Shown one piece after another: positions 27,115 to 30,100 of a stretch of DNA of 43,225 nt. Position 1 is the first letter of the stretch. Each line of letters opens with the position of its first letter. The DNA is from Myxococcota bacterium (GTDB lineage: Bacteria; Myxococcota_A; UBA9160; PR03). A program made the position numbers. Where the stretch lies: positions 1 to 43,225 of the forward strand of contig JBFIML010000039.1 in assembly GCA_041611735.1 (NCBI GenBank), given 5' to 3'.

Positions 27115-30100
27115 CCCCGCCCCGGGGCCTCTCGCCTCGGCATCCGGTTCGCTAGATTCCCGACCGGTTTCCACGCGCCCGTAGCTCAGTTGGATAGAGC
27201 GCCAGGTTGCGGACCTGGAGGTCGCATGTTCGAGTCATGCCGGGCGCGCCAGATTCCTCCGCCCCGTCGGTGCGTTGCTGCGGAGTTTCGCGTCTCCGAC
27301 TCGCCCGCAACCGTGGGTGCTGAGGGGGTGCCAGGTCGGGCCAGCCGTAGAGCCGCACCAAGCGCGCCCGCTCGAGCTCGTCGGGCCAGTTCGCGGGGTC
27401 GAGGAACGAGTCGTAGACCTCGACCACCATGCGGCTCGTCGTGTGGCCGGGCTCCGCGGCCACGAGCTCGGGGTTCCGGCCGCACACCAGCGCAGAGGTG
27501 GCGTAGCTGCCATCAGCCCCGCGAGGCGTGCGTCGCGAAACACCATGCGCACGACCATCAGGCGGTTGCGGATGGTCCGGTGTCGAAGGCCCTGGCGCGT
27601 CAGCGCGTTGCGGACCGCGACCGAGTCGCCGGGAGTCACCCGGTCCAAGCGCTTGTTTCCGATCCGTCCGGTGAGGTCGCGGAGGTGGCCGCGGTAGTCC
27701 CGGAACGTGGCGACCGTGACCTGACCTTCGAGGTCGTCGAGCCAGCGCTGGGACCACTCGGTGAAGGTGGGTACGCGCCTGGGGTAGTTGGGCTGCTTCG
27801 CCTCGCGCTCGAACCAGGAGAGGTCTCCCAGCGCGAGGCGCCGGTTGAGCTCGTGGGCGGTCTCCTCCGCGAGCGCCTCGTCGCCCGCCGGGATCACGAT
27901 GCGCCGACGTCTCTCCACACCGCTCATCACCCCACGCCCGAACACGCCCAGCCGCCCCCGATCGTCTCGTCCGACGCGGGCCTTCGCCATTCTCCCCATC
28001 GTATCATCCCGTCCGATCGATCAGGTCGATGGCGCGCGCCCTCGGCCACCGCGCCGCAACTCCCGTTGGCGCCTTGCGATTTCGCTCCATGAAGGCCACC
28101 ACCTCGACGAGCTCGATCCGCACGCTGCGCCCGACACGAAAGGCCGCCAGCTCGCCTCGCGCCACGAGCTTCTCGACCTGGCTTTGAGAGACCGAGAGCA
28201 GCCGTGCTGCCCCACGCAGCGAGACGGCGAGACAGTCGACGTCGTCGAGCGCGAGCCCGAGCTCCGCGGCCACGCGCCGTGCCCGCTCGAGTCTCTCTCC
28301 GGCGGTCAAGCTTCCGCCCCCTCGGGCCTCGACCCGCGCGACGCCCGCGGCGCCGGCACGACTCGCGTCGCACTCCGGCGCTGGCGCTGGAAGGCGCGAT
28401 CGCTCGCCAGGAACTTCTCGAGGATGCCTTCGATCAGCACGGGCAGCTCGATCTCGTGTCCATGCACCCGGGCGTAGAGCGCCGCGTAGGCATCGAGCTC
28501 TCCCGCCAGCCGGCCAGGCAGTCGGAGCCGGACCTTCCGCTCGGGAAGATCCGCTTCCCGAGGCCGGAGCTTGATGCCGCGCTTCAATTCGGCTCCTCCC
28601 CGGGGCCACGTCCTCGACCAGGCGAAGCACCCCGCGCCGCCAACGCCCGTGCGTGTCGCGGCCTTGCTCCTGCCGCGCGTCGATCTCGCGGCGCCGAGGC
28701 GCAGGCAGCAGCACGAAGAGCCACAGCGCCAGGTGATCGACCATTGACTTCAGCCGCCGCAACCCGTACCGCGATCTCCTGGATGCGAAGGGCGTGCTGC
28801 TCGAGCGTCGCCGCGAGACGCTCCTCCATCGAGTCTCTTGTGCCGGAGCGCCACTGCGCCGGCCTTGCCCGCCTCGGGCACCGCCTGGAGGGCATCCGCC
28901 CAGTGGGGTGACCGGAGCGCGTCCGCCCGGGAGCTACGGCCTGACCTCGCCCGTCGCCGTCTGCGGCGACGTGATCGTCGTCGGCGGACGCGTCAGCGAG
29001 CAGCTCTGGGAGACGCGGCTCCCGGCCGCTGGCCACGCCACTCCCATGACGTATCGGGGCCGGCGTACGGGCAAGCAGTTCGTCGTCGTGGCCTCCGGCG
29101 GAGGAAACCGGCTGGGCGACGGCATCTCCGGCAAGCTCGTGGCGTTCTTGCTACCCGGTGATGGGGAAGGGATTCCGGGCGCCGGGGCCCAGCGCTAGTC
29201 GAGGGAAGGTGGCTGCGCAGCGTGACCGCCGCGAACAGTGGGTCGTGGGCCGGGCGCCTCACTCGAGGTAGCCCAACGCCCGGAGCGCCTCGCGGCTCTC
29301 GGGCGAGAGCTCCACGGGCTTTCCCGGCGCGCGGCGGAAGCCGGCACTCTGCTGCAGACGTGCGTCGAGGGCCGCCTGGAGCGCCGTGACCAGCTCCGGG
29401 TGCTGCTGGGAGACGTTCTCGTGCTCGCCCGGGTCGCGGACCAGGTCGAAGAGCTCGACGAAATCCTCCGCCTCCTCCCGAAACAGCGCCGTGTAATGGT
29501 GCCGGCTCAGCTGCTCGCGCGATACCTCCCGCATGCCCGCCAGGGACCAGCGGATGAGCTTCCAGCGCCCGCTCCGCACGGCGCTGGCGCGGTAGGGGTA
29601 GGCCGAGAAGCCGAGGAAGCTGAAGACGGGCTCCGCCGGCGCCGCCCCGGAGCCGGGCGCCAGCAGCCCGACCCGGCTGACCCCCTGCACCGGCACGGCC
29701 ACCGGGACCGCCAGCAGCTCGCACAGCGTGGGGAGCACGTCGGTCAGACTCACCGGGCTCTCGATGCGCGCTTGCGGAACACCCGGCCCGGCCAGGAACC
29801 AGGCCGCGCGGATCAGCTCGTCGTACAGGGAATGGGTGTGGTCGAGTCGGCCGTGCTCCCAGAACTCGTCTCCGTGGTCCGAGAGCACGACGACCAGGGT
29901 CTCACGCAGTACGCCGCGGCGCTCCAGCCACGCGAGCAGCTCCCCGAGCTGGTGGTCCACCCAGCCGACCTCGCCGTCGTACAGCGAGATCAGGAGCTCT
30001 CGCTCGCGTTCCGTGGGCTCGGCCCGGATCGCCTCGACGTTGCCCCGGTGATGCTGGAAGACGCGGATCAGGTCCTCCGCCAGCGGGTAGAGCCGATCCG

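Follow-up and report, generated by a model that had tools for sequence, protein, structure and literature searches.

In the uncultured class of Myxococcota to which the organism studied here belongs, a tRNA-Arg with the anticodon GCG (G34) has very probably replaced the inosine system formed by tRNA-Arg(ACG) and the deaminase TadA, and most likely did so once. E. coli cannot do without TadA, which, to our knowledge, is regarded as close to universal among bacteria. The loss of tRNA-Arg(ACG) and tadA in this class is real. The replacing gene is found in a window of 43,225 nucleotides, the whole stretch of DNA that was analysed (contig JBFIML010000039.1, positions 1–43,225, forward strand), which belongs to the host metagenome-assembled genome (MAG) GCA_041611735.1, termed G000. 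In this MAG of 118 contigs, seven tRNAs that would be expected are missing (Ala-tgc, Asp-gtc, Gly-tcc, Ile-gat, Phe-gaa, Thr-ggt and Val-tac).

The tRNA-Arg(GCG) gene occupies positions 27175..27251 on the forward strand, is 77 nt long and has an encoded CCA end, as called by both ARAGORN and Rfam. It scores 69.2 bits with the Rfam tRNA model (RF00005, gathering score 29, E 3.7e-14) and has the D arm of a bacterial tRNA-Arg. Its anticodon loop is UUGCGGA (U32, G37), and its D loop is AGTTGGATA, with A at position 20. It has been established for E. coli ArgRS that A20 and C35 are the arginine identity elements, and A20 as well as C35 (in the anticodon GCG) are unchanged across 24 distinct class sequences. 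When these 24 distinct orthologues are aligned, the anticodon GCG is invariant, standard pairs are found in 504/504 stem cells, and compensatory double changes occur in 7 of the 21 pairs (41 cells), a level reached by none of 500 shuffles. Selection is thereby shown to maintain the cloverleaf. Judged from its sequence, the gene product is a working tRNA-Arg with G34, whose charging and use on the ribosome are predicted. An earlier note on this DNA had described the gene as a canonical tRNA-Arg(GCG), which the ARAGORN call, the Rfam score and the covariation bear out; it had also counted GCG in 35 of 35 ortholog loci, and on re-running GCG was found in 30 of 30.

The whole-assembly tRNA inventory of G000 contains Arg tRNA genes with the anticodons gcg, tcg, ccg, tct and cct, and neither a tRNA-Arg(ACG) nor any other A34 tRNA. 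A 94-nt call on contig C4, an 80-nt call on C36 and one call marked "???" are not tRNA-like and were set aside. Since no A34 tRNA is found in G000, TadA would have no substrate there. With the NCBIfam TadA model (NF008113, curated cut-off 150 bits), no G000 protein scores above 150 bits. The top match, at C9:9760-10200 with 50.1 bits, was rejected as a TadA candidate; this ORF is RibD (TIGR00326, 313.6 bits). In addition, tblastn of 14 TadA proteins of kin against G000 finds the RibD locus only. Inventory, profile search and tblastn thus agree with the earlier claim that G000 has no ACG tRNA and no TadA, and the ceiling of 50 bits given at that time is reproduced as the RibD match.

The arginine codons read by the G34 tRNA are abundant in this organism. 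In a crude ORF set of G000, whose genome has a G+C content of 72%, Arg makes up 10.35% of codons; CGC takes 54.5% of Arg codons (previously put at 55.6%), CGU 6.6%, CGG 30.5% and CGA 4.8%, so that CGC and CGU represent ~61% of Arg codons and ~6% of all codons. Under the wobble rules, tRNA-Arg(GCG) would pair with CGC in Watson-Crick fashion and with CGU through a G-U wobble, and tRNA-Arg(UCG) and tRNA-Arg(CCG) would read CGA and CGG. The tRNA-Arg(UCG) gene, called at 43056..43132 on the forward strand, would be the partner for CGA (and CGG), and the tRNA-Arg(CCG) gene is on contig C12. The CGN box would be covered by tRNA-Arg(GCG) and tRNA-Arg(UCG), both of whose genes are inside the window. 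Moreover, TrmD is found in G000 (288.4 bits) and would be expected to form m1G37 in tRNA-Arg(GCG).

The distribution of these genes was followed in 301 genomes sampled from the phylum at a completeness of 85% or more, 58 of them inside the class and 243 outside; TadA was scored at E<=1e-18 and ACG was counted by a strict pattern. TadA is present in 233/243 genomes outside the class versus 3/58 inside, and the ACG pattern in 190/243 versus 1/58. The GCG pattern has the opposite distribution (51/58 inside, 3/243 outside), with the strict pattern unmatched in 7 of the 58 class genomes. The UCG pattern is found on both sides, in 43/58 and 150/243 genomes, respectively. These counts uphold the earlier statement that TadA is kept outside the class and rare within it, and they fill a gap in that account, which had not documented ACG tRNAs in the TadA-bearing kin. 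Three outside genomes without a TadA match (G166, G352 and G367) are also missing the Ser tRNA cluster described below, and the whole locus is therefore unassembled in them. For G166 (family f17), TadA, ACG, GCG and the Ser cluster are all absent from the assembly, which makes this genome uninformative.

A second sample, like the first not exhaustive, comprised 151 class genomes; class genomes are MAGs with few exceptions. With the TadA model, one of the 151 is above the cut-off and one more reaches 144 bits, these being the two with full-length TadA-like matches. In five others the matches are partial, score 70–106 bits and fall on other deaminases; 137 do not exceed 62 bits, and 7 give no match at all. 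The ACG pattern occurs in 2 of the 151. Three class genomes that are single contigs (G022, G065 and G142) have RibD-level TadA matches only and no ACG.

A few class bins break the pattern. In G069, an 895-bp contig encodes a full TadA (162 bits) together with Ser(CGA)-Ser(GGA), and the bin's own GCG gene lies elsewhere. In G147, a TadA-like gene scoring 144.3 bits lies on a contig of 8.3 kb whose G+C content, 58%, matches that of the rest of the bin, and an ACG tRNA lies on a contig of 38% G+C. ACG genes are also found on short contigs in G042 and G086. As a test for contamination, G+C content flags only the ACG contig of G147, not the TadA contigs of G069 and G147; best-hit identities to G000, compared for the same purpose, do not decide the matter either. 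Most of the stray TadA and ACG matches look like contamination, with one possible exception. The earlier description of the state as that of a whole class therefore stands among the sampled members, apart from these four bins.

Further evidence for the loss comes from gene order. In the window, all on the forward strand, tRNA-Ser(UGA) (24883..24972) heads a conserved cluster and is followed by tRNA-Ser(GCU) (26855..26944), tRNA-Ser(GGA) (27024..27113) and, directly downstream of the latter and last in the cluster, tRNA-Arg(GCG). Outside the class, this tRNA cluster also contains tadA and runs Ser(UGA)-Ser(GCU)-Arg(ACG)-tadA-Ser(CGA)-Ser(GGA). There, Arg(ACG) and then tadA come next after Ser(GCU), and Ser(GGA) is the final gene, after tadA and Ser(CGA). 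The full six-gene order is found in 27/35 outside genomes, and Arg(ACG) is directly upstream of tadA in 33/35. In both orders of the class, Arg(ACG), tadA and Ser(CGA) are missing from the cluster, and Arg(GCG) stands behind Ser(GGA); the two are directly adjacent in 32/45 class genomes, including family f13, which belongs to the other order. No flanking protein gene is common to the window and the outside loci, which are linked by tRNA order only. The embedding of tadA in this tRNA cluster outside the class is new here, and the passages on TadA loss in a survey of bacteria (Diwan and Agashe 2018, PMC6063277) make no mention of such a position.

Several other features of the locus were observed. 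An ORF of the amidohydrolase family (25000..26625, forward strand; Pfam Amidohydro_3, 91.3 bits; start approximate, frame end at 26625) sits between Ser(UGA) and Ser(GCU). Because these two Ser genes start ~130–400 nt apart in those family relatives that have the complete set of four tRNAs, the ORF is a lineage-specific insertion into the cluster. An integrase fragment adjoins Arg(GCG) at the cluster end, and no repeat of the 3′ end of tRNA-Arg(GCG), as would mark an attachment site, occurs within the window. Independent metagenome contigs over 24800-27400 break at every tRNA; none bridges the cluster, and they supply no further evidence. No RNA run is listed for the locus. The six-gene order is also found in Nitrospirota MAGs, and partly in a Bacillota MAG.

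The ancestral locus of the phylum would thus have been Ser(UGA)-Ser(GCU)-Arg(ACG)-tadA-Ser(CGA)-Ser(GGA), from which the Arg(ACG)-tadA-Ser(CGA) segment would have disappeared in the class, with Arg(GCG) coming to lie behind Ser(GGA); the order of these events is itself inferred. Since many TadA-bearing kin already have tRNA-Arg(UCG) (the 150/243 above), inosine would have been redundant and its replacement possible. The ability of inosine to read A would have been unnecessary because tRNA-Arg(UCG) reads CGA, and given UCG already in the phylum, the G34 tRNA could take over what the inosine tRNA alone did. Because the same derived cluster order is found in both orders of the class, the loss probably happened once, in their common ancestor. 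The earlier placement of a single loss at the base of the class is supported in this way, by gene order rather than by a species tree.

The origin of the GCG gene is a separate matter, on which our readings are tentative. The GCG tRNA body is on average 70% identical to the ACG genes of the phylum (84% at best) and 80% identical to the UCG gene of its own genome. As it is no closer to ACG than to UCG, a simple A34G change in place is unsupported. It is possible that the gene is a recruited copy of another Arg isoacceptor; an A34G change of the old gene combined with a move within the cluster can also be envisaged, if somewhat doubtfully. Horizontal transfer of a GCG gene that displaced the native ACG gene is unlikely, even though GCG tRNAs labelled Patescibacteria, Chloroflexota and others are 85–91% identical to the class consensus, compared with a median of 72% and a maximum of 79% for the ACG genes of the phylum itself. 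The exact T arm of the class also occurs in two "Patescibacteria group" records, and the position of the gene at the cluster end, adjoining the integrase fragment, would fit an acquisition. However, the GCG gene of f13 and the ACG genes of family f38 have the same T arm, identity reaches 84% in the closest GCG-ACG pair, tRNAs as short as 75 nt are prone to convergence, and short MAG contigs may carry wrong labels. A FastTree tree built from 79 columns of 188 Arg tRNAs, with the anticodon masked, does not group the GCG genes of the class together and resolved nothing on this point.

Genus g164 of the same phylum shows a second replacement. There, the ACG gene is gone, an intact TadA is kept and tRNA-Leu(AAG) is present, and the GCG gene and the CCG gene next to it are 87.5% alike. 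We give an even chance to the reading that there are two routes out of the inosine system, one in which the class dropped the genes of substrate and enzyme together from the cluster, and another in which g164 dropped ACG only and derived GCG from a CCG copy. The retention of TadA in g164 is likely due to its tRNA-Leu(AAG).

The separate ACG-to-GCG replacement in g164 indicates that such events recur, and it could be argued that the class itself underwent several independent losses, given that the single loss is read from gene order. This is improbable: the derived order Ser(GCU)-Ser(GGA)-Arg(GCG) is common to both class orders, the tRNA body is near-identical in the two (94% mean column identity), and, stray matches aside, the ancestral state is found in no sampled class lineage. 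An assembly artefact, in which ACG and tadA went unassembled or unbinned and GCG is merely an extra isoacceptor, is scarcely credible: seven expected tRNAs are missing from G000, contigs break at tRNA clusters, the whole cluster is unassembled in some TadA-less outside genomes, and a few class bins contain TadA or ACG, but the cluster is contiguous without tadA or ACG in the window and 32/45 class genomes, ACG occurs in 2/151 class genomes versus 190/243 outside, the three single-contig genomes show the same absence, and GCG hardly occurs alongside TadA (3/243). Replacement of the ACG/TadA system by the G34 tRNA, once at the base of the class, is thus the preferred reading.

Archaea decode CGU and CGC by a G34 tRNA. 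They are described as having no A34 tRNAs and neither TadA nor ADAT (preprint 10.64898/2026.05.15.725136); compared with them, the tRNA-Arg(GCG) described here has a bacterial D arm and lies in a bacterial Ser-tRNA cluster, and the state is secondary, not ancestral. In bacteria, this kind of loss is already known from several groups, and the class is a further case. As the earlier note had said, loss of TadA with gain of G34 tRNAs is on record for other clades (PMC3711424, PMC6063277). In Mollicutes (the Pneumoniae group and M. pulmonis), TadA and ACG were lost and GCG and UCG gained (Yokobori et al. 2013, PMC3711424), and G000 likewise has GCG and UCG without tadA and tRNA-Arg(ACG). However, the Mollicutes have tiny A+T-rich genomes and have also lost tRNA-Arg(CCG), whereas class genomes are G+C-rich (72% in G000) and 2–7 Mb in size, CCG is kept, and CGC makes up more than half of Arg codons. 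Moreover, in the Mollicutes model the loss of tadA precedes the gain of UCG (PMC3711424), which here is already widespread in TadA-bearing kin.

Diwan and Agashe (PMC6063277) report that TadA loss accompanies loss of tRNA-Arg(ACG) and the presence of non-target Arg tRNAs, name Spirochaetes, a proteobacterial class, Tenericutes and Thermotogae as clades with TadA loss, and predict such losses in G+C-rich bacteria. Their survey covers 1093 sequenced bacteria, among which this uncultured class cannot have figured, and "Myxococc" is absent from its main text. Deletion of yaaJ (tadA) in Bacillus subtilis leaves a bacterium viable without I34, in which the unmodified ACG tRNA works by four-way wobble (Soma et al. 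2023, PMC10454642). Unlike in that deletion, the A34 tRNA is gone from the class and a G34 tRNA is in its place.

With the class, a free-living lineage with large, G+C-rich genomes joins the known cases of TadA loss, and genome reduction is therefore not required for such a loss. The conserved Arg(ACG)-tadA cluster provides a positional test of real loss in draft genomes, which is better than the absence of a match. Annotation and codon-usage models of the class should assign CGU and CGC to the G34 tRNA, with no I34 wobble assumed. If the two routes are true, whether TadA is kept would depend on whether an A34 tRNA is left and whether a UCG isoacceptor is already there, and the phylum would offer a natural series for the order of events in losing an "essential" modification.

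The tRNA-Arg gene with anticodon GCG occupies positions 27175-27251 on the forward strand of the window, in which ARAGORN finds seven tRNA genes. It closes a run of four tRNA genes on the same strand, after tRNA-Ser(UGA) at 24883-24972, tRNA-Ser(GCU) at 26855-26944 and tRNA-Ser(GGA) at 27024-27113. An amidohydrolase-family ORF (about 25000-26625, forward strand) is inserted between the first two, whose starts lie about 130-400 nt apart in family relatives showing all four tRNAs. As the earlier note had described, tRNA-Arg(GCG) is canonical: it scores 69.2 bits against the Rfam tRNA model (gathering score 29), has the usual bacterial tRNA-Arg type of D arm with A at position 20, and features the anticodon loop UUGCGGA, discriminator G and an encoded CCA end. 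In an alignment of 24 distinct orthologues from the uncultured, two-order class to which the genome belongs, all 504 stem cells hold standard pairs. Changes on both sides occur in 7 of the 21 pairs (41 cells), which none of 500 shuffles reached, and pairing falls to 26-55% when partners are offset by 1-3 columns. No variation is seen in the anticodon or in most of its loop. Selection maintains the gene as a tRNA.

Directly 3′ of tRNA-Arg(GCG), an ORF on the reverse strand (27235-28762) overlaps the last tRNA bases. Its weak matches are confined to the SAM-like N-terminal domain and the central domain of phage integrases; it lacks the catalytic domain and adjoins an ORF with an HTH_17 domain; the two are probably the remnant of an element once integrated at this tRNA gene. 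Within the window, no repeat of the tRNA 3′ end was found. A 752-aa ORF further along (30731-32989, reverse strand) matches the AglB_L1, AglB core and STT3 N-terminal domains, which belong to oligosaccharyltransferase families more familiar from archaea and eukaryotes.

The genome studied (G000, GCA_041611735.1) is a metagenome-assembled genome of 118 contigs with 72.3% G+C and an estimated completeness of 95%. ARAGORN, run on all 118 contigs, finds the Arg anticodons GCG, UCG, CCG, UCU and CCU, and neither ACG nor any other A34 tRNA; the three anomalous calls, of 94 nt, 80 nt and one undetermined, show no tRNA-like features. The best match of the NCBIfam model for TadA, the A34-to-inosine (I34) deaminase, reaches 50.1 bits against a cut-off of 150 and is RibD (TIGR00326, 313.6 bits). 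A tblastn search of the genome with 14 TadA proteins from kin matches the RibD locus only. These results bear out the claim that both TadA and an ACG tRNA are missing here, and since seven expected tRNAs are also missing from the assembly, absence in this genome alone would be weak evidence. In a rough selection of 1538 long ORFs whose third-position G+C is high, CGC makes up 54.5% of Arg codons, compared to the 55.6% claimed earlier, followed by CGG (30.5%), CGU (6.6%), CGA (4.8%), AGG (2.8%) and AGA (0.7%). Arg accounts for 10.35% of all codons in this set, which puts the share of codons that tRNA-Arg(GCG) would read at about 6%.

The same state extends to the relatives. A close match to tRNA-Arg(GCG) is found in 40 of 41 genomes of the family and order, with anticodon GCG in all 30 loci scanned. 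A fixed phylum sample of 301 genomes, each at least 85% complete, was searched four times, with 58 genomes inside the class (G000 included) and 243 outside. The GCG pattern occurs in 51 of 58 class genomes versus 3 of 243 outside, the ACG pattern in 1 versus 190, TadA at E<=1e-18 in 3 versus 233, and the UCG pattern in 43 versus 150. The rest of the phylum thus keeps TadA, as had been claimed, and the ACG tRNAs of these kin, missing from the earlier note, are now documented. Ten outside genomes are without a TadA match, and five of these match the ACG pattern; the Ser cluster is also missing in three of five probed TadA-less outside genomes, which points to assembly gaps.

In a separate sample of 151 class genomes, TadA exceeds the cut-off in one (G069, 162 bits) and reaches 144.3 bits in another (G147). 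Partial matches of 70 to 106 bits in five genomes do not extend past the N-terminal two thirds of the profile and were rejected as other deaminases. The model finds nothing above 62 bits in 137 of the 151 and has no match at all in 7. The ACG pattern occurs in two, and the single-contig genomes G022, G065 and G142 are likewise without TadA and the ACG pattern. In G069, TadA shares an 895-bp contig with Ser(CGA)-Ser(GGA), and a longer contig carries the genome's own GCG gene; the Ser(GGA) next to TadA would thus be a second copy, which suggests that the TadA contig is a foreign fragment, for which G+C is not decisive. G147, too, carries a class-type GCG gene of its own. The ACG gene in this bin sits on a clearly foreign contig of 38% G+C; the contig with the TadA-like gene is 8.3 kb long and its G+C is ordinary. 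G042 and G086, of one genus, have ACG genes on short contigs; that of G042 has an unusual T loop, GGATCGTGCC, compared to the usual GGTTCGA type, and is found on two short contigs (C250 and C260), once beside a UCG tRNA.

Among 35 distinct outside genomes from seven families, tadA lies within the same tRNA cluster as the class locus: 27 have the full one-strand order Ser(UGA)-Ser(GCU)-Arg(ACG)-tadA-Ser(CGA)-Ser(GGA), and Arg(ACG) is directly upstream of tadA in 33. This six-gene order is older than the phylum. In a set of 80 tadA loci drawn from diverse bacteria, picked by likeness to the TadA of one of the kin and not at random, tRNA genes lie within 1.5 kb of tadA in 22, far beyond the phylum, with Ser tRNA genes in 17 and Arg(ACG) in 7; the loci of one Archangiaceae MAG and of two Nitrospirota MAGs have all six genes in order. 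No paper remarking on tadA flanked by tRNA genes was found. Inside the class, 20 of 45 genomes have Ser(UGA)-Ser(GCU)-Ser(GGA)-Arg(GCG), 10 have Ser(GCU)-Ser(GGA)-Arg(GCG), 2 have Ser(GGA)-Arg(GCG), and 1 has the two Ser genes swapped; Arg(GCG) stands alone within the stretch examined in 11 and is cut by a contig end in 1. In G000, Ser(CGA) is now on a contig other than the window's. Because the cluster is present in its derived order, the slot for tadA and the ACG gene is assembled and empty, and this position is clean positional proof of loss. The derived order is common to both class orders, being found in family f13 as well as f1-f12, which argues for one event in the class ancestor, as the earlier note had proposed.

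Identities bear on the origin of the GCG gene. Excluding the anticodon loop, class GCG genes average 70% identity to ACG genes of the phylum (the best pair 84%, with an identical T arm) and have 80% identity to the UCG gene of G000. Among the matches listed, GCG genes whose records carry labels of other phyla (Patescibacteria, Chloroflexota and others) show 85-91% identity to the class consensus, and the exact class T arm is present in two of them. This likeness could reflect convergence, mislabelled contigs or a horizontally spreading GCG gene, and a tree of 188 Arg tRNAs does not resolve the origin. The GCG gene also occupies a cluster slot different from that of the old ACG gene. A simple in-place A34G change is therefore not supported.

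Some side features of these genes were also observed. The 3′ CCA is encoded in class tRNA-Arg(GCG) genes and in the other Arg tRNAs of G000, and is mostly not encoded in the ACG genes of outside families f19, f38 and f32. The genome G253, which also has TadA and ACG, carries nine tRNA genes in 2 kb (C20:1-2048; Val, four Arg including GCG, two Lys, Ile and Val), a stretch resembling a tRNA array of mobile or phage type.

An independent ACG-to-GCG replacement with the enzyme retained is found outside the class, in genus g164 of family f19 (G321 and G273). Its cluster reads Ser(UGA)-Ser(GCU)-tadA-Ser(CGA)-Ser(GGA) (G321 C4:272500-279500; G273 C148:2000-9000), without the ACG gene that would stand upstream of tadA. 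TadA itself is intact over its full length, with 161.8 bits in G321 and a Pfam MafB19-deam match that spans positions 4-142 of 142. The 47 tRNA matches of G321 include Arg anticodons GCG, CCG, UCG, UCU and CCU and no ACG. The g164 GCG gene adjoins the CCG gene and, being 87.5% identical to it versus 71% to ACG genes, appears to be derived from a CCG copy. Both independent GCG lineages have U32 (UUGCGGA), and phylum ACG genes have C32 (CUACGGA or CUACGAA); U32 may tune a stronger G34-C pairing. Bacterial TadA makes I34 in tRNA-Arg and tRNA-Leu, according to PMC8266599, and the g164 enzyme may therefore be kept for tRNA-Leu(AAG), a possible second substrate. G321 has this gene (C3:45340-45530), and neither Leu(GAG) nor Leu(UAG) is among its 47 matches. 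The Leu(AAG) gene type occurs in 52 of 243 outside genomes, mostly in f19 (24/26) and f26 (17/18), with f29 at 2/2, and in none of the 58 class genomes. The genus is a useful contrast case within the same phylum.

Standard wobble pairing lets G34 read C and U, and CGA is the one codon that inosine reads and G34 cannot. In the class, tRNA-Arg(GCG) would read CGC and CGU, and the UCG and CCG isoacceptors would read CGA and CGG; with the CGN codons covered in this way, inosine would be unneeded. UCG is common in TadA-bearing kin, so the ancestor would already have had a back-up for CGA. A G34 tRNA could then replace the inosine tRNA in one step, which would leave tadA without a substrate. TrmD (288.4 bits in G000) would methylate G37. 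We infer these decoding roles, the m1G37 modification and this order of events.

Losses of this kind are known in other clades, as had been stated earlier. Mollicutes that lack tadA and have GCG in place of ACG, beside a UCG tRNA, are described by Yokobori et al. (2013, PMC3711424). Several major losses of TadA, in which the ACG target is lost and non-target Arg tRNAs are present, are reported by Diwan and Agashe (2018, PMC6063277), who predict such losses in G+C-rich bacteria. In B. subtilis, tadA is shown to be dispensable by Soma et al. (2023, PMC10454642). A pattern scan for GCG-type bacterial tRNA-Arg, with one genome per species, gave at least 120 matches, and those listed include records labelled Chloroflexota, Planctomycetota, Patescibacteria, Treponema, Thermotogaceae, Nautiliales and others. 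A literature search for the TadA enzyme in Myxococcota gave nothing on topic among the matches listed ("Tada" apparently being an author's name), and no paper joining tRNA-Arg(GCG), TadA loss and Spirochaetes was found. The earlier observation and its interpretation hold. The class adds a further clade, with clean positional proof, to the known losses of this kind, and the mechanism is not new.
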